Shown here: one piece after another, positions 1 to 10,737 of the stretch | Layout: every line of letters starts with the position of its first letter | How positions within the stretch are numbered: position 1 is the stretch's first letter | Origin: a virus | Taxonomy: Duplodnaviria > Heunggongvirae > Uroviricota > Caudoviricetes | Virus record (IMG/VR): IMGVR_UViG_2690316099_000007 | Length of the DNA stretch: 10,779 nucleotides | Reading direction: 5' to 3' (one strand) | Made by a program: the position numbers and the translations under genes | Notes under the pieces: model-generated | Told to the model about the DNA's origin: nothing | The model's database searches: none | The model's input: the letters and a program-made list of their open reading frames with translations, nothing else

Positions 1-10
1 TGATCTAACT

Positions 11-40
11 AAAAAGGCCGCTCTGCGGCCTTTTTTCTTT
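11..40. terminator. Bidirectional rho-independent terminator
   Basis: Seen in sequence: GC hairpin GGCCGC(16-21)/GCGGCC(25-30) with a 3-nt loop, preceded by A5 (11-15) and followed by T6 (31-36), so it can act on either strand. Confidence 0.5.
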
Positions 41-130
41 CAATAACTGATTGATTTATAATATGTTATGCCGCTTCGTTCCACTCTGTGAGATAGGGTG
101 CCTTATCCGGCCTTACCCTGGCAACCGATT

Positions 131-472: not shown

Positions 473-1880
473 TACTCCGGCAATTCTGCCTGTTAATTCT
501 GAGGTAAAGGCAAGCTCATCTGATTGTTTCCCCTGTGTGAAGCTGGCAGATCATGCCACGGGATATCTTCTGAAGAGTGAACGCCGGAGGCGTGTTNNNN
601 NNNNNNNNNNNNNNNNNNNNNNNNNNNNNNNNNNNNNNNNNNNNNNNNNNNNNNNNNNNNNNNNNNNNNNNNNNNNNNNNNNNNNNNNNNNNNNNNNNNN
701 NNNNNNNNNNNNNNNNNNNNNNNNNNNNNNNNNNNNNNNNNNNNNNNNNNNNNNNNNNNNNNNNNNNNNNNNNNNNNNNNNNNNNNNNNNNNNNNNNNNN
801 NNNNNNNNNNNNNNNNNNNNNNNNNNNNNNNNNNNNNNNNNNNNNNNNNNNNNNNNNNNNNNNNNNNNNNNNNNNNNNNNNNNNNNNNNNNNNNNNNNNN
901 NNNNNNNNNNNNNNNNNNNNNNNNNNNNNNNNNNNNNNNNNNNNNNNNNNNNNNNNNNNNNNNNNNNNNNNNNNNNNNNNNNNNNNNNNNNNNNNNNNNN
1001 NNNNNNNNNNNNNNNNNNNNNNNNNNNNNNNNNNNNNNNACTTATAGATTTACTATAGCATTGTATTATTTGNNNNNNNNNNNNNNNNNNNNNNNNNNNN
1101 NNNNNNNNNNNNNNNNNNNNNNNNNNNNNNNNNNNNNNNNNNNNNNNNNNNNNNNNNNNNNNNNNNNNNNNNNNNNNNNNNNNNNNNNNNNNNNNNNNNN
1201 NNNNNNNNNNNNNNNNNNNNNNNNNNNNNNNNNNNNNNNNNNNNNNNNNNNNNNNNNNNNNNNNNNNNNNNNNNNNNNNNNNNNNNNNNNNNNNNNNNNN
1301 NNNNNNNNNNNNNNNNNNNNNNNNNNNNNNNNNNNNNNNNNNNNNNNNNNNNNNNNNNNNNNNNNNNNNNNNNNNNNNNNNNNNNNNNNNNNNNNNNNNN
1401 NNNNNNNNNNNNNNNNNNNNNNNNNNNNNNNNNNNNNNNNNNNNNNNNNNNNNNNNNNNNNNNNNNNNNNNNNNNNNNNNNNNNNNNNNNNNNNNNNNNN
1501 NNNNNNNNNNNNNNNNNNNNNNNNNNNNNNNNNNNNNNNNNNTTGAAATTATACTGGATAGCGGTGTTTCCAAAGCTCCCCCAGCGTAAGGCATTCTNNN
1601 NNNNNNNNNNNNNNNNNNNNNNNNNNNNNNNNNNNNNNNNNNNNNNNNNNNNNNNNNNNNNNNNNNNNNNNNNNNNNNNNNNNNNNNNNNNNNNNNNNNN
1701 NNNNNNNNNNNNNNNNNNNNNNNNNNNNNNNNNNNNNNNNNNNNNNNNNNNNNNNNNNNNNNNNNNNNNNNNNNNNNNNNNNNNNNNNNNNNNNNNNNNN
1801 NNNNNNNNNNNNNNNNNNNNNNNNNNNNNNNNNNNNNNNNNNNNNNNNNNNNNNNNNNNNNNNNNNNNNNNNNNNNNNNN

Positions 1881-2695
1881 ATTTCTTCACACTGCTTTTT
1901 CCAAAGTGGATAATGTTTTTCTTTATAAAGAGAAATATCATCTGCTGATACAGGGAAATACTCCTGTTGACTAAATGACTTGATGATTTTTTCTAGTGAT
2001 TGTGGGGTAGTTTGTTCATTGTCAAAGTTTGTAACCAATGGGAATGCATCCGTTAGTTGACAAAGCAAATTATCAACTTCATATTCAGATAAAGCTGTAT
2101 AATAAGGAAGTACAATATTTAATTGCTCGTCATCGGCTACTTTAATGCTGAAATCGGGCATAGACTGAGTGAATTGCTTCAGNNNNNNNNNNNNNNNNNN
2201 NNNNNNNNNNNNNNNNNNNNNNNNNNNNNNNATTTGTTTATCCTTTTCATCTGGCTCAGCAGGAAGCAACCATGAAGAAGGCACTTTATAGCAGATTATA
2301 TTATGTTTTATTGCTGAAAAACGTGGACCGCTATCATTGGTAATGATTGCCACCTCCGAATCTGGATCGTCAGCGCAATANNNNNNNNNNNNNNNNNNNN
2401 NNNNNNNNNNNNNNNNNNNNNNNNNNNNNNNNNNNNNNNNNNNNNNNNNNNNNNNNNNNNNNNNNNNNNNNNNNNNNNNNNNNNNNNNNNNNNNNNNNNN
2501 NNNNNNNNNNNNNNNNNNNNNNNNNNNNNNNNNNNNNNNNNNNNNNNNNNNNNNNNNNNNNNNNNNNNNNNNNNNNNNNNNNNNNNNNNNNNNNNNNNNN
2601 NNNNNNNNNNNNNNNNNNNNNNNNNNNNNNNNNNNNNNNNNNNNNNNNNNNNNNNGCCTTGTAATAATGATACATACTTCATCACAAGCAGTAAT
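1881..2695 (-). CDS. AT-rich cargo gene, unknown function (visible in three fragments: 2695-2656, 2380-2232, 2182-1881)
   Basis: Seen in sequence: one minus-strand frame is open across all 100 codons of 1881-2182 and all 49 codons of 2232-2380 despite AT-rich composition, while every + frame has stops there. Visible peptides: ...YCADDPDSEVAIITNDSGPRFSAIKHNIICYKVPSSWLLPAEPDEKDKQ... and ...LKQFTQSMPDFSIKVADDEQLNIVLPYYTALSEYEVDNLLCQLTDAFPLVTNFDNEQTTPQSLEKIIKSFSQQEYFPVSADDISLYKEKHYPLWKKQCEE.... No family recognised. True start and stop are masked, and whether the fragments are one gene or more is unknown. Confidence 0.45.
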
Positions 2696-3040
2696 NNNNN
2701 NNNNNNNNNNNNNNNNNNNNNNNNNNNNNNNNNNNNNNNNNNNNNNNNNNNNNNNNNNNNNNNNNNNNNNNNNNNNNNNNNNNNNNNNNNNNNNNNNNNN
2801 NNNNNNNNNNNNNNNNNNNNNNNNNNNNNNNNNNNNNNNNNNNNNNNNNNNNNNNNNNNNNNNNNNNNNNNNNNNNNNNNNNNNNNNNNNNNNNNNNNNN
2901 NNNNNNNNNNNNNNNNNNNNNNNNNNNNNNNNNNNNNNNNNNNNNNNNNNNNNNNNNNNNNNNNNNNNNNNNNNNNNNNNNNNNNNNNNNNNNNNNNNNN
3001 NNNNNNNNNNNNNNNNNNNNNNNNNNNNNNNNNNNNNNNN

Positions 3041-4144
3041 TGTTTCTGCTATCCATTCCGGGATTTTTGCCTCAAGCTCAAGCTGCGTGGTAAAGCCGCT
3101 GTTATCAATGGTGTGCTCGGCTTTTGCAATAATCCAGTCCTGATTATCAATCTCGCTTTTAAATCCTGTTACCGTGCCATGCATTTCGGGGTAGAGTTCT
3201 GCACGTCCATGCGCCAGTGTGATGGAGAATGATGCGGCTCCGCGTTGTAGCTGCTGCCACTTTGCCGCCGCTGCACGTCTTGCTGCCTGCTCGTTCTGAT
3301 AAGTTTTGCGTAACACAAACACGTTGCCTTCCGCACCTTCCATATAGTCGCCTTCCCGGCTGCTGCTTTTCTCCTTTTTTGGTTTTGACGGTTTGCGGCG
3401 TTTCACGCTGACTTTTTTCTTTTTCCCGTAATTAAGATCAAGCCAGTAAGCGCGTACCCCCGTATACGCTTCGCGGTCAGCAATGCGGAACTGATGGCGA
3501 TCGCCGCTGCTGCGTGTGATGGCGAACGAGGGCAACGGCTGGCCCTGTGCGTTCACGCCACCACCGGGCATGATGAATAACAGATTACCGCTTTTTACCG
3601 TGGTGATTGCGCCCAGCATTTCCGCCATGCGCGTAAGGAAGGACATGTCGCTTTCTTCGGTCTGGTCGGCGTGGTCGATTTCGATATCCATCAGCATTTC
3701 GCTGATTTGCGGTTTCAGACCATACCGATGAGCGATGGCGGATACCACACGCTCAACGGTCACATCATGCCAGGACACCTCACGTTTAACGTTAAATTCA
3801 GCCCGAAAATCTGCGCTTCTGGCTGAAACAGTCAGCCTGTCCGGCGGTCCTTCGTGAGCGATTTCATCAACAATGTAAGTGCCTTTTTCTGTCAGCGGTT
3901 CTCCCTTCCAGCCAATGAGAACCGTCAGGCGCGCGCCCCGTGGCGGTAGCTGCAACTGACCATCCGCATCATCCAGCGTGATGGTGAGCTGGTCCGCCTC
4001 AAATCCCCGGTTGTCGGTCAGTGACAGGCTCATCAGGCGCTCTGCCACGCCTGACAGCGTTTTACCCTCCGCGAGAATATCAAAATCCGGCATTTTCACG
4101 GGGTCTGTGCCCTGACTGAGCAATTGCATGGTGGTGTCGGTCAT
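3041..4144 (-). CDS. D: P2 gpD-like tail protein (phage late control D family), 3' end masked
   Basis: Translation MTDTTMQLLSQGTDPVKMPDFDILAEGKTLSGVAERLMSLSLTDNRGFEADQLTITLDDADGQLQLPPRGARL... matches the gpD-family N-terminal signature as recalled. ATG at 4144-4142 with GGAGG Shine-Dalgarno 6 nt upstream. 368 codons are visible before the mask at 3040; P2 gpD is about 387 aa as recalled, so the stop probably lies just inside 2696-3040. The 1241-aa track ORF 551-4276 is an artefact of translating N runs. Confidence 0.85.
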
Positions 4145-4204
4145 CTGCTCCCTCCCTGTGTGGCATGGTCGCATGTGCGTGCGGAGGGGGTTACTGCTTT
4201 TTGT

Positions 4205-4222
4205 TGTCGCCGTGGCGGGAGA
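4205..4222 (+). promoter_or_regulatory. Candidate P2-type late (Ogr/Delta-dependent) promoter element upstream of FI
   Basis: Seen in sequence: TGT-N12-AGA with an internal palindrome CGCC-GT-GGCG (4208-4217), about 90 bp upstream of the FI start. The established P2 late-promoter consensus is TGT-N12-ACA centred near -55, so this is a one-mismatch match. Inference only. Confidence 0.2.
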
Positions 4223-4301
4223 ATGGCGCAGGGGTGAGATTACGCGCGTGGTGGGTGATGATTGTTGCCGAATCATTTAACGGATACAAGGGGTTGAAGC
4301 T

Positions 4302-5486
4302 ATGAGTGAAACTCGTTTTCATGGTGCCCGTGTTACGGAAAATACCGACCTGGTAACAGCGATTAACGATGTTGATTCCAGCGTTATCGGTATCGTGGCA
4401 ACGGCGGATGATGCGGACGCGGAGCTGTTCCCGCTGAACAAGCCCACACTGCTGCCCCGCGTCAATGACGTGCTGGGAAAATGCGGAACAACGGGGACGC
4501 TTTATCGTGCGCTTAAGGCCATCGCAGACCAGGTGAGCACAAAGGTGATCGTCGTTCGCGTGGCTGAACACAAAGAAGAAGACGGAAAAACGCAGGATCA
4601 ACTGGTTATCGGTGGTTCTGAATCTGACGGCAGCTATACGGGGATGTATGCGCTGCTTGTTGCAGAGCAGGATGAAAGCATCGGATACCGTCCGCGTATT
4701 CTGGCCGCGCCGGAGCTGGACACGGAGGCGGTGACAAAATCCCTGTGCGTGATTGCGGGTAAACTGCGCGCGTTTGTGTATGCCTCATGTCATGACTGTA
4801 ACACGATGGCTGAGGCAATTACCTACCGCCAGAAATTCAACGAACGTGAGGTGATGCTCTTATGGCCGGACTTCATCGCCTACAACCCGAAAAGTGGCAA
4901 AAACGAAACGTTCCCCGCGCCTGCCTATGCGTGCGGCCTTCGTGCGTACATTGACCATGAGCAGGGCTGGCACAAATCGCTGTCCAACGTTCCGGTTAAA
5001 AATGTGCTGGGGATGTCCAGGCATGTGTTCTGGTCGTTGCAGGCCGAAGACAGTGATGCCAACAGCCTCAACAACAAAGAAATCACGACCATTATTCGTC
5101 GCAACGGGTTCCGCTTCTGGGGCAACCGCACACCGGAAACGAACGCCTACATCTTTGAGGTGTATACCCGAACCGCACAGGTGCTGGCTGATTCAATTGC
5201 GGAAGCGCAGTTTGAAACCATCGACAGTCCACTGACGCCTGCGAACGTGAAGGATGTTATCGGTGCCATCAGGGCAAAACTGGATTCACTGGTTACTGCC
5301 GGGAAACTGATTGGGGCGTCGTGCTGGTATGACGTGGTGGATAACGGCACCACGAATTTACGTCAGGGGCGCGTGCGTATTCGCTACAAATATACGCCTG
5401 TTCCCCCGCTGGAAGACATGGAGCTTTACCAGTCGTTTACTGATGAATTCTTTGGTCCCGCATTTGCGGTGCTGGGAGGTGCCTGA
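4302..5486 (+). CDS. FI: Contractile tail sheath protein (P2 gpFI family)
   Basis: 394-aa ORF with AAGGGG Shine-Dalgarno 8 nt upstream. Conserved FI motifs as recalled from P2: FPLNKP, LRAF.YAS, IRRNGFRFWGNRT, YTRTAQV, YTPVPPLE. Stop TGA overlaps the FII start (ATGA). Confidence 0.95.
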   Translation: MSETRFHGARVTENTDLVTAINDVDSSVIGIVATADDADAELFPLNKPTLLPRVNDVLGKCGTTGTLYRALKAIADQVSTKVIVVRVAEHKEEDGKTQDQLVIGGSESDGSYTGMYALLVAEQDESIGYRPRILAAPELDTEAVTKSLCVIAGKLRAFVYASCHDCNTMAEAITYRQKFNEREVMLLWPDFIAYNPKSGKNETFPAPAYACGLRAYIDHEQGWHKSLSNVPVKNVLGMSRHVFWSLQAEDSDANSLNNKEITTIIRRNGFRFWGNRTPETNAYIFEVYTRTAQVLADSIAEAQFETIDSPLTPANVKDVIGAIRAKLDSLVTAGKLIGASCWYDVVDNGTTNLRQGRVRIRYKYTPVPPLEDMELYQSFTDEFFGPAFAVLGGA

Positions 5487-5998
5487 TGGCTGTACCAAAA
5501 CATCTTCGCTTTTTTACGCTGTTTGTGGATGGTGAAAACGAAGTGGGTAAGGTGACGTCCGTCACTCTGCCTAAGCTGACGCGCAAAACCGACAGCTACC
5601 GGGGTGGTGGCATGATGGGAGCGGTAAGTATTGATCTCGGCCTGGATGACTCCGCGCTTGATGCGAGCTTTGTCATGGGGGGCGCAGTTCGTGAGCTGTT
5701 CCTTAAGTATGGCGGCACGATTGACGGTACGCTGCTGCGTTTTGCGGGTGAATACTACACCGACGCTGAAAGCGACCTGTATGAAGTCGAAATGCGCGGA
5801 CGTGTGACGGAAATTGATATGGGGGAAGCCAAACAGGGCGAAGCCACATCACACACTTACGCCATTAAAAACACCTACTACAAGCTGAGTGTTAACGATC
5901 GCCCGTTGTGGGAGATTGACCTGCTGAACTTCATTTACCGGAAGGACGGCAGGGACATTGTGCCCGATCGCATCCGTTCCGCGCTCGGGCTTGGCTGA
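5486..5998 (+). CDS. FII: Tail tube protein (P2 gpFII family)
   Basis: 170-aa ORF translationally coupled to FI, with GGGAGG Shine-Dalgarno. Motifs VTLPKLTRK, GLDD, MRGR..EIDMGE.KQGE match the P2 FII tube protein as recalled. Confidence 0.95.
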   Translation: MAVPKHLRFFTLFVDGENEVGKVTSVTLPKLTRKTDSYRGGGMMGAVSIDLGLDDSALDASFVMGGAVRELFLKYGGTIDGTLLRFAGEYYTDAESDLYEVEMRGRVTEIDMGEAKQGEATSHTYAIKNTYYKLSVNDRPLWEIDLLNFIYRKDGRDIVPDRIRSALGLG

Positions 5999-6052
5999 TA
6001 AGTAATATGCAGGCGGCGCAGTGCGTCGCCTCTGACTGAAAGGAGTTTCCTG

Positions 6053-6410
6053 ATGAAAGAGACGAAAAACATCGATACCGAAAACACGGTCGTTGCTGAC
6101 ACTGTGAAAGAAACCAGTGAGCGTGGCGTAAAACTTACCCAACCAATTGAGCGAGGCGGCGAAAAAATCACGTATGTGGAGATCACCGGGGCTATTGAGC
6201 AGGCTGGNNNNNNNNNNNNNNNNNNNNNNNNNNNNNNNNNNNNNNNNNNNNNNTGTCGCTGTCTGATGTGCTGAATTTGAAAGCGGAATCCATGTTTACG
6301 CTGCTGTCACGCGTGACATCACCGCGACTGGATGAAGTGACGATCAAAAAAATGGCATCCCGTGACTTTATTCAGTTATGTGTGGTTGCCGTAAATTTTT
6401 TGAGCGGTGC
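6053..6410 (+). CDS. E: Tail assembly chaperone gpE (P2 E family); 3' end masked and frame discontinuous across the 6208-6253 mask
   Basis: ATG at 6053 with AAGGAG Shine-Dalgarno; N-terminus MKETKNIDTENTVVADTVKETSERGVKLTQPIERGGEKITYVEITGAIEQAG. After the 46-nt mask the E-like peptide continues in a different frame (...LSLSDVLNLKAESMFTLLSRVTSPRLDEVTIKKMASRDFIQLCVVAVNFLSG) up to the slippery site. Position between FII and T fits P2 gene order. Confidence 0.7.
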
Positions 6411-6710
6411 NNNNNNNNNNNNNNNNNNNNNNNNNNNNNNNNNNNNNNNNNNNNNNNNNNNNNNNNNNNNNNNNNNNNNNNNNNNNNNNNNNNNNNNNNN
6501 NNNNNNNNNNNNNNNNNNNNNNNNNNNNNNNNNNNNNNNNNNNNNNNNNNNNNNNNNNNNNNNNNNNNNNNNNNNNNNNNNNNNNNNNNNNNNNNNNNNN
6601 NNNNNNNNNNNNNNNNNNNNNNNNNNNNNNNNNNNNNNNNNNNNNNNNNNNNNNNNNNNNNNNNNNNNNTCTTGATATCCGGGTCGCTTTCAGCGCCGTT
6701 GACAGGCTGA
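6053..6710 (+). CDS. E+E' frameshift-extended tail chaperone (-1 slip at 6396-6402, E' frame ends 6710)
   Basis: The -1 frame relative to E is open from the slippery site through the mask to a stop at 6710 (track ORF 6378-6710, C-terminus ...LISGSLSAPLTG), overlapping the start of T as in P2. Most of E' is masked. Confidence 0.45.
6396..6402 (+). promoter_or_regulatory. Programmed -1 ribosomal frameshift slippery heptamer T_TTT_TTG (E to E')
   Basis: Seen in sequence: TTTTTTG lies in X_XXY_YYZ register in the E reading frame (AAT TTT TTG). The -1 frame from here (FFERC...) stays open to a stop at 6708-6710. The P2 E/E' frameshift in the FETUD operon uses the same heptamer (established knowledge). 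Confidence 0.6.
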
Positions 6711-9490
6711 CCCGGCCTGCCGAAAACGCCCGCCGCCTGATGGGGCAGTTTGGTGACTCCATCCAGCGAACGCAGGGGGCGATCAAAAATCTCGAGCGTC
6801 AGGCGCGTTCATTTGAGCGCGCCCGTGACGCTGTCAGTAAAGCGGATGCGGGCATCGTGAAAGCACGACGCCAGCTTAACGCCCTTAATCAGTTACAACG
6901 CACGGGTACAGTGCTCAGCGAAAAACAACAAAAGCTGATGCAGCAGTTAAGCACCCGGCTTGAACGCCTGAATGAATCGCGCACACGGGAAATTCAGAAA
7001 ATGCGGGAACTTGGCGGAGAGCTGAAACGCCACGGCATTTCCCTGACAGGCAGCGATAACACCATCCAGCAGGCCATCAGACGCACCGGACAATACAACA
7101 ACCAGCTTGAACGCGAACGGCGGGCGCTTGCGCGTGTAACGCAGGCGCGTGAGCGGTATTCACGCGCGCAGGAAACAGCGGGAAAACTGAAAACAGGTGG
7201 TGCGCTGGCAACAGGTGCGGCGGCAGCGGGCGGCTATGCTGCCGGGCGTTTTTTGCAGCCCGCTATCGGGTTCGGGAAAGAGATGTCCCGTGTTCAGGCA
7301 CTGACGCGAATCGATAAAAACAGCCCGCAGTTTAAGGCGCTGCGTGAGCAGGCGTTAAAACTTGGCTCTGAAACGCAGTTCACCGCAGGCGATGCCGCCA
7401 GTGGACAGGCATTTCTTGCAATGGCTGGTTTCACACCGCAGGCCATTCAGGCTGCGCTTCCCGGCGTGCTGAGCATGGCAACGGCTGGCGGTATGGACCT
7501 CGGCGAGACGGCGGATATTGGTTCCAATATCCTGACGCAGTTCGGCCTCTCTGCTGACCAGATGGACCGGGTCGGTGACACACTTACCGCAGCGTTTACC
7601 CGTACCAACACTGACCTTCGCGCACTGGGCGAAACCATGAAATATGCAGGTCCGGTGGCGGGTAAGCTGGGAATATCGCTGGAGCAGGCCGCAGCGATGG
7701 CGGGCGTGCTGGCGAAGATGGGTATCAGGGGGAGTGATGCAGGTACAGCGTTGCGTAAAAGCCTGGCCAATCTGTCATCACCGCCAAAGGCAGCGGCAGA
7801 AGCACTGAAAGAGCTGGGGGTGTCAGTTGCTGACGCCAAAGGCAAAATGCGCCCGATGGAGAATGTGCTGGCCGATCTCTATAAAGCCACCCGCAAATAC
7901 GGGGAGGTTGACCGGGTATCGTTCTTTAAGGACATTGCCGGAGAAGAGGCTTTCACATCATTTATGGGCCTCGTTGATGCGGCAGGTGACGGCTTCTTAG
8001 CCAAACTGAGAAAAGAACTTGAAGGCGCGCGCGGTGAGGCAGAACGCACGGCAAAGGTTATGGCCAATAACCTTGATGGCAACCTGAAATCACTCGGCAG
8101 TGCATGGGAAGGTCTGCGTATTCGCATCAGTGATCTGGTTGACGGTCCGCTGCGTTCTGTCACGCAGTGGCTCACGCGGGTTGTCTCAAAGGTGACGGCG
8201 CTGGCGCAGGCCCACCCGGCACTGACGCGCCAGTTACTGATAGCGGGAGGCGCACTGCTGGCGACAACAGCAACGGTTGGTTCGTTGTCTCTGGTTATTG
8301 GGGTGCTTCACGGGAAGCTGGCTACGTTGCGTCTCGGTTTTTCTCTCCTGACCGAATCAATGAATGTTGTCAGGGTTCTGCCTGCATTATGGGGAATGGT
8401 GACGGGTTCCGTTTCTTTACTTGGTGGCGCTATCGGGGCGCTGTTCAGTCCGGTTAGTCTTATCGTGGCTGCGCTTGCCGGAGCTGCCGTTCTTATCTGG
8501 AAATACTGGGATCCCATCAGGGCATTTTTTGCCGGGGTGTTCAGCGGGATTATGGAAAGGCTGACCCCGTTGCGCGAAACCTTTGAACGGTTTGGCCCTG
8601 TTTTTGATGTCGTGCGCGATGGGATTATTCAGGTCTTTAACTGGTTTAAATCGCTGCTGTCACCGATGGAGTCCAGCAAGGAAACGCTGGATAAATGTGC
8701 CAGTGCTGGCGAGATATTCGGTAACGTTCTTGGCGGTGCGTTACAACTTGTTCTGACACCTGCAAAAATGCTACTGGATACGCTGGCGTGGATACTTGAA
8801 AAACTTGGCGTCCTTCCGGATGAAGCGGAAAGGGCGCGCAAGAAAATCGAAGACGCACAGCGTGCGGCCATTCTTCAGGACAAGGTTGCCTTGCTTCAGG
8901 GGAACCTGGCGAAAATCAATCCGCCGAAGCCTGTGGAAAATGGCAATGGCACCGGAGGTGATAAACCCAAAGACAACAAACCGCTCACAGACAGCAATAC
9001 CGGGACGCTACGCAGACTCAGCAAAATTGCTGATAACACAGGTAAGCTGGTTGATGAGACGAAAAAACGCATTGGCCCCGGCGATATTGTCTTTAAGAAC
9101 CTGCCCCGCGCACTTGCTGTTCGTGGGGAGTGGCAGGAGCGGAAGATTGCGCAGGTCAGTAAGCCTGCCCCCGCAATTAATATCACACCCGTGGTCCCGG
9201 CTCCGCTGCCTCCGGCGCTGGTCCCTGTTGTTGCGGCCAGCTCCCGCCCGGTGGCGNNNNNNNNNNNNNNNNNNGCGGAGGCCATACGCTCTCCAGTGGC
9301 ATCAGTTCCTGTAACTTCCCGTAACCGGGAGCCTGTTGCCTCCGGATTTGGTGGTGAAATTCATGTTCATCTGCATAACGTTGTTACGCAGAATCCCCGC
9401 GAACTGGCGAAACTGGTCGGTGAAATGGTCAGGGCAGAAATGGAACGGCGCGCCCGTGCCGGGCGTGGCAGTTTTTACGATAAAGATTGA
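6407..9490 (+). CDS. T: Tail tape measure protein (P2 gpT family); true start lies inside the mask 6411-6669
   Basis: Continuous frame from 6671 to TGA at 9488-9490, about 940 visible codons. Coiled-coil-like N-region (QLNALNQLQRTG..., ERERRALARV), a glycine/alanine-rich hydrophobic segment (LLIAGGALLATTATVGSLSLVIGVL...AALAGAAVLIWKYW) typical of tape measure proteins, and gene order E-T-U. Frame is maintained across the 18-nt mask at 9257-9274. Confidence 0.9.
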   Translation: MXXXXXXXXXXXXXXXXXXXXXXXXXXXXXXXXXXXXXXXXXXXXXXXXXXXXXXXXXXXXXXXXXXXXXXXXXXXXXXXXXXXXXXXLDIRVAFSAVDRLTRPAENARRLMGQFGDSIQRTQGAIKNLERQARSFERARDAVSKADAGIVKARRQLNALNQLQRTGTVLSEKQQKLMQQLSTRLERLNESRTREIQKMRELGGELKRHGISLTGSDNTIQQAIRRTGQYNNQLERERRALARVTQARERYSRAQETAGKLKTGGALATGAAAAGGYAAGRFLQPAIGFGKEMSRVQALTRIDKNSPQFKALREQALKLGSETQFTAGDAASGQAFLAMAGFTPQAIQAALPGVLSMATAGGMDLGETADIGSNILTQFGLSADQMDRVGDTLTAAFTRTNTDLRALGETMKYAGPVAGKLGISLEQAAAMAGVLAKMGIRGSDAGTALRKSLANLSSPPKAAAEALKELGVSVADAKGKMRPMENVLADLYKATRKYGEVDRVSFFKDIAGEEAFTSFMGLVDAAGDGFLAKLRKELEGARGEAERTAKVMANNLDGNLKSLGSAWEGLRIRISDLVDGPLRSVTQWLTRVVSKVTALAQAHPALTRQLLIAGGALLATTATVGSLSLVIGVLHGKLATLRLGFSLLTESMNVVRVLPALWGMVTGSVSLLGGAIGALFSPVSLIVAALAGAAVLIWKYWDPIRAFFAGVFSGIMERLTPLRETFERFGPVFDVVRDGIIQVFNWFKSLLSPMESSKETLDKCASAGEIFGNVLGGALQLVLTPAKMLLDTLAWILEKLGVLPDEAERARKKIEDAQRAAILQDKVALLQGNLAKINPPKPVENGNGTGGDKPKDNKPLTDSNTGTLRRLSKIADNTGKLVDETKKRIGPGDIVFKNLPRALAVRGEWQERKIAQVSKPAPAINITPVVPAPLPPALVPVVAASSRPVAXXXXXXAEAIRSPVASVPVTSRNREPVASGFGGEIHVHLHNVVTQNPRELAKLVGEMVRAEMERRARAGRGSFYDKD

Positions 9491-10002: not shown

Positions 10003-10037
10003 AACCGCTAATGGTCAGATTAGCGGTTATTTTGTTT
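10003..10037. terminator. Bidirectional rho-independent terminator between the convergent U and invertase genes
   Basis: Seen in sequence: perfect stem ACCGCTAAT (10004-10012) / ATTAGCGGT (10019-10027), loop GGTCAG, flanked by an A-rich run upstream and TATTTTGTTT downstream. The invertase stop codon (10029-10027) lies in the stem. Confidence 0.6.
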
Positions 10038-10683
10038 CCTGACTCTTCTCTATTGTTCCGATTGATTCTCCTGCGGGGTGGTAACGATAAATCGTCGATA
10101 TACCAATGCCGTAAATTATTGCCAGTTGTTTTCTGTCGTGCCCGTTTTTGATCAGCCTTGCTATTTGCTCATGCTGTTCTTTTGTCAGCTTCGGTCGACG
10201 TCCNNNNNNNNNNNNNNNNNNNNNNNNNNNNNNNNNNNNNNNNNNNNNNNNNNNNNNNNNNNNNNNNNNNNNNNNNNNNNNNNNNNNNNNNNNNNNNNNN
10301 NNNNNNNNNNNNNNNNNNNNNNNNNNNNNNNNNNNNNNNNNNNNNNNNNNNNNNNNNNNNNNNNNNNNNNNNNNNNNNNNNNNNNNNNNNNNNNNNNNNN
10401 NNNNNNNNNNNNNNNNNNNNNNNNNNNNNNNNNNNNNNNNNNNNNNNNNNNNNNNNNNNNNNNNNNNNNNNNNNNNNNNNNNNNNNNNNNNNNNNNNNNN
10501 NNNNNNNNNNNNNNNNNNNNNNNNNNNNNNNNNNNNNNNNNNNNNNNNNNNNNNNNNNNNNNNNNNNNNNNNNNNNNNNNNNNNNNNNNNNNNNNNNNNN
10601 NNNNNNNNNNNNNNNNNNNNNNNNNNNNNNNNNNNNNNNGTATTCTGGTCATTTGTTGATACCCTTACATAGCCAATCAGCAC
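10027..10683 (-). CDS. Serine DNA invertase, Gin/Pin/Cin/Hin family (catalytic core masked)
   Basis: N-terminus from a GTG start at 10683 reads (M)LIGYVRVSTNDQN, the Gin/Pin N-terminal signature with the catalytic Ser in VRVS. C-terminal HTH region GRRPKLTKEQHEQIARLIKNGHDRKQLAIIYGIGISTIYRYHPA closely matches the Hin/Pin DNA-binding domain as recalled. GGGAGA Shine-Dalgarno 6 nt upstream. Middle 436 nt masked but frame is conserved across it. Confidence 0.9.
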   Translation of the reverse strand: MLIGYVRVSTNDQNXXXXXXXXXXXXXXXXXXXXXXXXXXXXXXXXXXXXXXXXXXXXXXXXXXXXXXXXXXXXXXXXXXXXXXXXXXXXXXXXXXXXXXXXXXXXXXXXXXXXXXXXXXXXXXXXXXXXXXXXXXXXXXXXXXXXXXXXXXXXXXXXXXGRRPKLTKEQHEQIARLIKNGHDRKQLAIIYGIGISTIYRYHPAGESIGTIEKSQETK

Positions 10684-10737
10684 GCTGAATCTCCCGTCCA
10701 AAAGCGCAAATCATGCCATGCAGGCCGGAAACGGCCA

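Follow-up and report, generated by a model that had tools for sequence, protein, structure and literature searches.

The window analyzed here is a stretch of 10,779 nucleotides from a tailed virus (Caudoviricetes; IMG/VR record IMGVR_UViG_2690316099_000007) in which a mostly masked, AT-rich block (positions 597–3040) lies between the P2-like gene gpD and a hok locus. An earlier note on this DNA had proposed that the block might hold an accessory or anti-phage system of unrecognized type. We find that the block consists of ogr, a late-gene activator gene, and a mobile 1.97-kb cassette with a single gene, the product of which, a 500-residue protein with an N-terminal PIN nuclease domain, is probably a single-protein defense system acting as an RNase in abortive infection (probability roughly 0.6). 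The cassette was identified as cargo by its G+C content (38%, compared with 52% for the prophage) and by the existence of relatives in which only 42 bp separate ogr from gpD, which bears out the horizontal acquisition in a P2-like prophage that the note had suggested. That the cassette is a single-gene module follows from the occurrence of the same PIN plus C-terminal architecture in at least 505 sequence clusters and from the lack of a conserved partner gene. The genomic contexts of the homologues point to defense.

Results

The masked block can be read in E. coli O111:H− 11128

Masked bases (N) make up 76% of the block and leave five short readable fragments. The sharp shift toward AT-rich DNA described in the earlier note is real, with G+C contents of 0.21 (1040–1072), 0.34 (1881–2182), 0.40 (2232–2380) and 0.33 (2656–2695), compared with 0.51 for bases 1–596 and 0.54 for bases 3041–6207; a fifth fragment that the note did not list (1543–1597) has a value of 0.455. 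The 500 bases at 1881–2380, across which the note had seen an open minus-strand frame co-directional with gpD, are matched at 99% identity or more by 59 of 5,426 complete E. coli genomes, and the frame proved to encode residues 122–170 and 178–277 of a 500-residue open reading frame (ORF).

E. coli O111:H− 11128 (reference locus L001) is 100% identical to all six visible pieces and to the hok–ogr segment (85–596), so that the block could be read unmasked there. This identity covers 579 visible block bases and 512 bases of hok–ogr, and the masked bases are assumed to be equal. Compared with O111, the N runs of the block exceed the real gaps by 85, 93, 36, 30, 33, and 33 nucleotides; hence, window coordinates inside the block are nominal and not to scale, and the true length of the block is 2,134 bp, compared with 2,444 nominal. 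Two N runs in the gpE region (6208–6253 and 6411–6669) are likewise too long, by 32 and 61 nucleotides. In the unmasked O111 sequence, G+C is 0.48 for ogr, 0.38 for the cassette (over 1,971 bp), 0.54 for gpD, and 0.52 for the entire prophage.

The window and O111 11128 are mosaic with respect to each other. The hok–ogr segment and the cargo are 100% identical, and 3041–9256 has diverged, with 98.0% identity in gpD-FI-FII and 93.3% in the tape-measure gene. Such an identical cargo within a diverged prophage backbone implies recombination around the slot. Tail-gene identity to the window nowhere exceeds 98.4% among the complete E. coli genomes, and O111 11128 served as the proxy for the cargo.

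The cassette carries one gene

The earlier note had allowed for one to three genes and had treated all of 597–3040 as cargo, listing ordinary phage genes such as ogr, or a known insertion sequence (IS), as findings that would count against it. One cargo gene was found, not up to three. Bases 597–753 (about 157 nominal bases, some 7% of the block) are the 5′ part of ogr and thus an ordinary phage gene, and the cargo reading holds for the cassette. The PIN gene is the only ORF of meaningful size in the cassette, with no transposase gene, and the cassette ends lack terminal inverted repeats, showing only 7–8-bp direct repeats (YTAAGTTG) at the junctions; an insertion sequence or transposon was rejected.

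The visible pieces at 1543–1597, 1881–2182, 2232–2380, and 2656–2695 all fall within the cargo gene, and 1040–1072 lies just 3′ of its stop codon. In O111 the ORF is flanked by intergenic regions of 243 bp (ogr side) and 225 bp (gpD side), neither of which contains a small conserved ORF. A promoter-like match within the 225-bp region ends 35 nucleotides upstream of the cargo ATG. An Rfam scan revealed no known RNA element within the block. The same cassette architecture occurs in 59 of the 5,426 genomes. These belong to several serotypes, and the ORF remains intact in them, with an identity of 99% or more; most strains with this copy are Shiga toxin producers (O111, O26, and O157).

The gpD–ogr junction is a variable slot

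About one in four complete E. coli genomes carries the prophage module. At the empty site, the ogr start and the gpD stop lie 42 bp apart. A junction probe made of ogr and the 3′ end of gpD matched 1,326 genomes; in only 768 of them did its two halves adjoin or lie within 1 kb of each other, and the contiguous junction is missing in about 40% of the genomes matched. Sampling of the remaining genomes yielded at least nine unrelated cargos at the same point, in agreement with the earlier suggestion of a variable hotspot. Apart from the cassette studied here, the occupants are a 356-residue PIN_12 protein (strain M6), a DUF3800 protein, a 340-residue protein with a weak HEPN match, hypothetical proteins of 221 and 465 residues, a ParA-family protein, the His-Xaa-Ser radical-SAM system HxsDBCA of E. 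coli 13KWH46 (L080, 5255–9543), and a YecA-family protein, as well as IS elements and a group II intron. The PIN_12 protein of strain M6 is not related to the cargo protein. The Hxs system of 13KWH46 is complete (hxsD-B-C-A), with hxsC split by an IS3 element, and its HxsB shows a weak likeness to prokaryotic viperins in PADLOC (E = 3e-7).

A fixed site between core genes that is either empty or filled with alternative cargos is what defines hotspot cargo in P2-like phages. Two defense hotspots of P2 have been described, tin/old (gpA–Q) and Z/fun (Rousset 2022, PMC9122126; Vassallo 2022, PMC9519451), and the gpD–ogr slot resembles both in its fixed position between core genes and its mutually exclusive, unrelated, AT-rich cargos. 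The position is not named in PMC9122126, PMC9519451, or NAR 2026 gkag898, the texts of which contain neither “ogr” nor “gpD.”

Nine unrelated cargos are framed by short conserved ends (L001 5121–5153 and 7042–7057; nominal ~787–819 and 3018–3033), in a comparison that also covered loci L005, L006, L007, L009, and L079–L082. The ogr-side frame reads GCTATTCTAAGTTG, followed by 8–14 nucleotides and then CAGAYTCCAACTGACAG; the gpD-side frame reads TGAGYTAATACATYTAAGTTG and abuts the gpD stop codon. A single YTAAGTTG remains at the empty site. The direct repeats of the frame could mediate precise loss or exchange of cassettes.

The cargo protein has a PIN_4 domain and a conserved C-terminal region

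Residues 10–151 of the cargo protein match Pfam PIN_4 (PF13638) with E = 4.5e-8 and 33.9 bits, compared with a gathering score of 21.9, and RefSeq names the protein “PIN domain-containing protein.” The “unrecognized type” of the earlier note thus does not apply to the domain, and it stands with respect to the defense models of PADLOC v2.0, as described later. In an alignment of 38 sequences (28–73% identical), E45, D47, D112, and D137 are invariant, and D10 is conserved in at least 90%. The equivalent active-site residues of SMG6 are D1251, E1282, D1353, and D1392 (PMC5499597), paired here by motif order and not by residue-level structural superposition. On this basis, D10, E45, D112, and D137 correspond to the D/E/D/D pattern that SMG6 and other PIN nucleases share, and the predicted catalytic tetrad is intact.

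Two short motifs had been pointed out in the earlier note as weak hints of a nuclease or an ATPase. The nuclease part of this proposal held up, with TNDSG (residues 135–139) containing the invariant D137, the fourth acidic residue of the PIN domain. The Walker-B-like ITACDE (residues 28–33) lies in a stretch that is not conserved, and there is no P-loop domain; the ATPase part was abandoned.

The AlphaFold2 model, which is of high confidence (pLDDT, the predicted local distance difference test score, 85.4), shows an N-terminal PIN domain (residues 1–160) with the α/β/α fold typical of this superfamily, followed by a long helix, a small α/β domain (about residues 186–289), an immunoglobulin-like (Ig-like) β-sandwich (residues 290–470, with a disordered loop at 358–388), and a terminal helix. 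Neither Pfam nor NCBIfam gave a match beyond residue 151, which leaves the C-terminal ~335 residues without a known family. No NCBIfam model matches the protein at all, the sole PHROG match is weak and of unknown function, and no sequence relative was found in the PDB. The C-terminal region is nevertheless well conserved in places: Y263, Y268, W271, N301, G303, P345, P348, C414, R418, H419, A449, and N451 are invariant, and conserved motifs include RDPNxFYYK, ECEQWRH, and HAxNL. C275, H283, C414, and H419 are invariant or nearly so and are located on a helix of the middle domain and a strand of the β-sandwich; together, these four residues could coordinate zinc and thereby connect the two C-terminal domains.

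The two parts of the protein travel together

Full-length relatives (28–73% identity, 470–520 residues) fall into 52 clusters. A search with the C-terminal region among 1.84 billion representatives yielded 810 clusters at E ≤ 1e-3, of which 505 (clustered at 50% identity) also passed E ≤ 1e-10, nearly all of 480–510 residues and aligned over about residues 168–490. The longer variants tested carry an N-terminal PIN_4 domain, PF13638 being matched also in family variants with longer N termini, and short matches are N-terminally truncated fragments. One 745-residue relative has a membrane N terminus, which may be a gene-call artefact. The occurrence of the PIN domain and the C-terminal region in the same architecture throughout indicates that the two parts travel together. 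The PIN domain has a mean pairwise identity of 0.47, compared with 0.22–0.40 for the C-terminal parts; the lower conservation of the latter is what would be expected of an effector paired with a sensor.

Homologues occur in prophages, mobile elements, and defense loci

A homologue from Rahnella (73% identity) lies in a P2-like prophage between gpS and gpV. The DNA that it shares with E. coli, at 78% nucleotide identity, comprises the gene plus 142 nucleotides upstream, where the promoter-like site is located, and 180 nucleotides downstream, so that the gene moves with its own control region. An Enterobacter homologue (53%) occupies the classical gpA–Q (tin/old) hotspot beside an AAA_15/AAA_21 ATPase, a 34% relative is found just after int in a 186-like prophage, and a Pectobacterium homologue (55%) lies in an integrative and conjugative element (ICE) with a type IV secretion system. 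The family is thus represented at four distinct cargo positions of P2-like prophages as well as in one ICE. A 44% relative adjoins an AAA_15 plus UvrD pair resembling Gabija, and a few distant homologues are carried on plasmids.

A scan with one genome per species gave 60 loci from many phyla, with many from Dehalococcoidia, and 48 full-length loci were analyzed. Type I restriction-modification (R-M) genes lie within 10 kb in 13 of the 48. In 10 of these 13, from at least five phyla, the gene is placed between hsdM-hsdS and hsdR on the same strand, with short gaps to hsdS and, in some cases, with the start of hsdR abutting the gene. The R-M-embedded copies come from Dehalococcoidia, Gemmatimonadota, Latescibacterota, Opitutales, and a Versatilivoraceae metagenome-assembled genome (noted at loci L021, L023, L025, L027, L035, L037, L043, L048, L054, L058, and L059, around 6000–15000 in each). 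Coupling of PIN-like genes to type I R-M systems without antitoxins was noted in general terms in 2017 (PMC5499597). Some of the hsdS ORFs carry or follow a small nucleotidyltransferase segment (Polbeta/NTP_transf_2); ORF calling may have merged a separate gene of the MNT type here.

The homologue is located directly downstream of AbiEi/AbiEii in 3 of the 48 loci. Other neighbors include integrases, IS elements, Fic proteins, STAND ATPases, and ImmA-like peptidases, and also housekeeping genes. Apart from the R-M and AbiE subsets, no conserved partner gene was found across the 48 loci, and every enterobacterial copy examined is without linked hsd genes.

Discussion

A probable single-protein nuclease defense system

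The gene described here is genuine cargo at a genuine hotspot, and an AT-rich nuclease cargo in a P2-like prophage is of the kind that a specialist would expect. It fits a self-contained, mobile single-gene module that turns up repeatedly at sites where defense genes gather. Functional precedents are DS-3 and DS-5, two E. coli PIN-nuclease anti-phage systems validated in the DefensePredictor study, in both of which mutation of a catalytic Asp or Glu abolishes defense (PMC13092281). DS-3 works as one protein, has no antitoxin, and is presumed to be auto-inhibited; DS-5 consists of a PIN_12 domain protein and a required second protein (PMC13092281). Like these, the cargo protein is encoded by an E. 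coli accessory gene and has a PIN nuclease domain. It differs from DS-5 in combining PIN_4 with a C-terminal region and having no partner, and from DS-3 (WP_022645725.1), the PIN domain of which is split between the N and C termini, in that its own is contiguous at the N terminus. A relationship to DS-3 was rejected (hhalign probability, 0.2%), and the cargo protein was not found in the DefensePredictor supplementary tables examined. The cargo protein is a credible candidate for a new variety of single-protein nuclease defense.

In the mechanism that we propose, the cassette would express one 500-residue protein from its own promoter, and the N-terminal PIN_4 domain would be the effector, a metal-dependent endoribonuclease of the SMG6/Nmd4 type. 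The C-terminal region, with its α/β domain and Ig-like β-sandwich, would keep the nuclease inactive and would also sense infection, either by binding a phage product or by detecting the disturbance of a host complex. Once activated, the protein would cleave cellular and/or phage RNA, leading to a stop in translation and abortion of infection by competing phages, which would protect the lysogen population. An auto-inhibited mode such as that suggested for DS-3 is the most likely one, although the two families are unrelated.

Alternative explanations

The cargo protein might be an RNase that serves the phage, be it in counter-defense (by destroying host immune RNAs or signaling nucleotides), host shut-off, or the processing of lytic transcripts. 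Its gene is co-oriented with gpD and ogr and lies between two late-region genes, anti-defense genes can also occupy prophage hotspots, and PIN_4 occurs in phage PhoH2 proteins as well (PMC5499597). Such a role is nonetheless unlikely, since only 59 of about 1,200–1,300 E. coli genomes with the module carry the gene, which comes with a promoter-like site of its own and is foreign in G+C content. Homologues are found in type I R-M operons, beside AbiE, in an ICE, and, in phyla that have no P2-like phages, at plain chromosomal sites; none was found in 50,697 phage records. Compared with the PIN_4 endoribonucleases SMG6, Nmd4, and PhoH2 (PF13638), the cargo protein lacks the PhoH ATPase, the 14-3-3-like domain, and the helical domains of nonsense-mediated decay proteins, and the α/β plus β-sandwich region is unique to its own family. 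Membership in PhoH2 (PIN_4 plus a PhoH P-loop ATPase) was rejected because the C-terminal fold is a β-sandwich and there is no ATPase match.

Size and gene neighborhood bear on a second possibility, namely that the protein is an addiction or stress toxin, self-inhibited or controlled by an unrecognized small antitoxin, that stabilizes the prophage or acts in stress without defending against phages. The VapC toxin of VapBC modules has ~130 residues and comes with an antitoxin, whereas the cargo protein has 500 residues, including the conserved extra region of ~335, and no antitoxin gene. A VapBC-type module was rejected for want of an adjacent upstream antitoxin gene, and a toxin–antitoxin pair with an RNA or protein antitoxin because there is no partner gene, with no conserved small neighbor in the 225-bp and 243-bp flanks, and there are no tandem repeats of the ToxI kind. 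This makes a toxin an unlikely reading, even though most bacterial PIN proteins are VapC toxins, members of Pfam PIN_4 are listed as toxin–antitoxin toxins, and R-M-coupled PIN-like genes without antitoxins are on record (PMC5499597). The nearby hok toxin might be taken to favor it, but hok is present whatever the cargo.

The R-M-embedded homologues invite a comparison with PrrC. This protein combines an ABC-ATPase with an anticodon nuclease, and in EcoprrI, a type Ic R-M locus, its gene is flanked by hsdS and hsdR. The likeness is one of position only, a latent-RNase gene between hsdS and hsdR with short gaps and on the same strand, as seen in 10 of the 48 homologue loci; the nuclease folds are unrelated, and the copies in the window and in enterobacteria stand alone in mobile elements. 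By this analogy, a guard logic similar to that of PrrC is plausible, and the placement suggests that R-M-embedded relatives may act as PrrC-like guards in some lineages. That the cargo protein is itself a type I R-M accessory, firing on phage anti-restriction, with the prophage copy using the type I system of the host or being an orphan, is quite unlikely. Linked hsd genes are absent from 35 of the 48 loci and from all enterobacterial copies examined, the linked cases may derive from one mobile cassette lineage (hsdM 62–80% identical), and the protein has no PrrC-type ABC-ATPase or anticodon-nuclease domains. An R-M-embedded placement was rejected for the window copy, which lies in a prophage slot and has no hsd genes in its vicinity.

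A decaying or silent passenger without current function in the host, for example AT-rich DNA silenced by H-NS, would fit the base composition, the interruption of gpA by IS1203 that makes the O111 prophage itself defective, and the fact that the window gene is readable only in its visible bases, but is very unlikely in view of an ORF that is intact, with an identity of 99% or more, in 59 genomes from several serotypes and of catalytic and C-terminal motifs that are invariant across phyla in a family with full-length homologues in at least 505 clusters.

Points that weigh against defense

Several observations speak against single-protein RNase defense as the function of the cassette. None of the 5,027 defense-protein hidden Markov models of PADLOC-DB v2.0.0 matched the cargo protein or any of 38 family members, and literature searches on the accession, on PIN_4 in defense, and on a gpD–ogr moron yielded nothing specific and no paper that mentions the protein. 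The eight other slot occupants scanned likewise gave no recognized defense model beyond weak partial matches. Among homologues, about two thirds of the loci have heterogeneous neighbors, some of them housekeeping genes, and the hsdM identity of 62–80% means that the R-M-embedded loci may represent few independent events. No swapping of effector domains on the C-terminal region was seen, unlike in many modular sensors, and the search of 50,697 sequenced phage records returned zero homologues. Finally, the intactness of the cargo ORF in the window is assumed from the O111 copy.

A broader proposal goes beyond the cassette and is correspondingly tentative. In this proposal, which we consider possible but doubtful, proteins with PIN_4 and the C-terminal region would constitute a widespread, unnamed, single-protein immune family with a β-sandwich sensor, wired to R-M as a PrrC-like second line in some lineages, firing once restriction is blocked, and the gpD–ogr junction would be a third, uncharted defense hotspot of E. 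coli P2-like prophages, filled almost entirely with undiscovered systems in cassettes whose repeat frames would allow them to be exchanged or precisely lost.

Flanking genes and feature positions

In O111, btuC and ihfA flank the element, a P2-like prophage of full length. With variable slots in parentheses, its genes follow the order int, A, (ParM etc.), Q P O N M L, V W J I H G, (acetyltransferase), an inverted U-T-E-FII-FI block, D, (cargo), ogr, hok. Compared with phage P2, the FI-FII-E-T-U operon has the opposite orientation, a state that a preprint describes for invertase-carrying loci. In the window, the position equivalent to Z/fun holds a serine recombinase (Table 1), and the O111 counterpart of this slot is a serine O-acetyltransferase. 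O111 has 137 extra bp (L001 4282–4418) between the ihfA terminator and the prophage end.

The hok gene adjoins the block, lies outside the cargo, and is kept in every sampled relative irrespective of the cargo. There is no Rfam hok/Sok match at the gathering score for this ORF, and the sole Rfam match in the window is a partial small RNA downstream of ihfA. At L001 7059–8300 and the corresponding stretch of many genomes, RefSeq often presents gpD as an 801-nucleotide coding sequence named “contractile injection system protein, VgrG/Pvc8 family” plus a 93-nucleotide pseudogene fragment on the opposite strand, and elsewhere as an intact 1,110-nucleotide “late control D”; the annotation is inconsistent, and the sequence is unchanged.

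Table 1. Features of the window, with positions in the O111:H− 11128 reference locus (L001) where available
Feature	Window position	Strand	L001 position	Remarks
3′ part of STnc540 small RNA family	1–97	+		Rfam
hok/Gef-family toxin ORF	162–302	−		46 residues, 141 nucleotides; ORF call; “Hok/Gef family protein” in L001 and all sampled relatives
ogr, Ogr/Delta zinc-finger late-gene activator	493–753 (493–596 visible; 5′ part in an N run, end nominal)	−	4827–5087	86 residues; Pfam Ogr_Delta, E = 5e-14
AT-rich cassette at the gpD–ogr junction	798–3026 (nominal)	.	~5132–7050	About 1.92–1.97 kb, 38% G+C; from occupied versus empty site comparison and G+C
Cargo gene, WP_001035742.1	1082–2809 (nominal; 5′ end at nominal 2776–2809)	−	5331–6833	1,503 nucleotides, 500 residues
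C-terminal region, coding part	1082–2251 (nominal)	−		Residues ~165–500
PIN_4 nuclease domain, coding part	2264–2809 (nominal)	−		Residues 1–160
Sigma-70-like promoter match	2845–2872 (nominal, masked)	−	6896–6869	TTGATA-16 nt-TATTAT, 10/12; consensus match only
gpD (late control D/tail protein)	3035–4144	−		369 residues; conserved right-hand border of the slot
Serine recombinase/DNA invertase	10027–10701 (mostly masked)	−		Between tail-fibre genes and gpU

Implications

If the cassette is a defense system, the few single-protein PIN-nuclease immune proteins would be joined by one with a new sensor region, which would also provide a handle on a family spread over many phyla, uncultured Dehalococcoidia among them. 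The recurrent position of homologues between hsdS and hsdR sets up a comparison with PrrC, the classic restriction-enzyme “guard,” that can be tested. Since the eight scanned cargos have no known defense model beyond weak partial matches, the gpD–ogr slot is a compact place to look for new systems. Because the carriers are mostly Shiga-toxin-producing strains, phage resistance encoded by this prophage could also affect phage typing or phage-based control of these bacteria.

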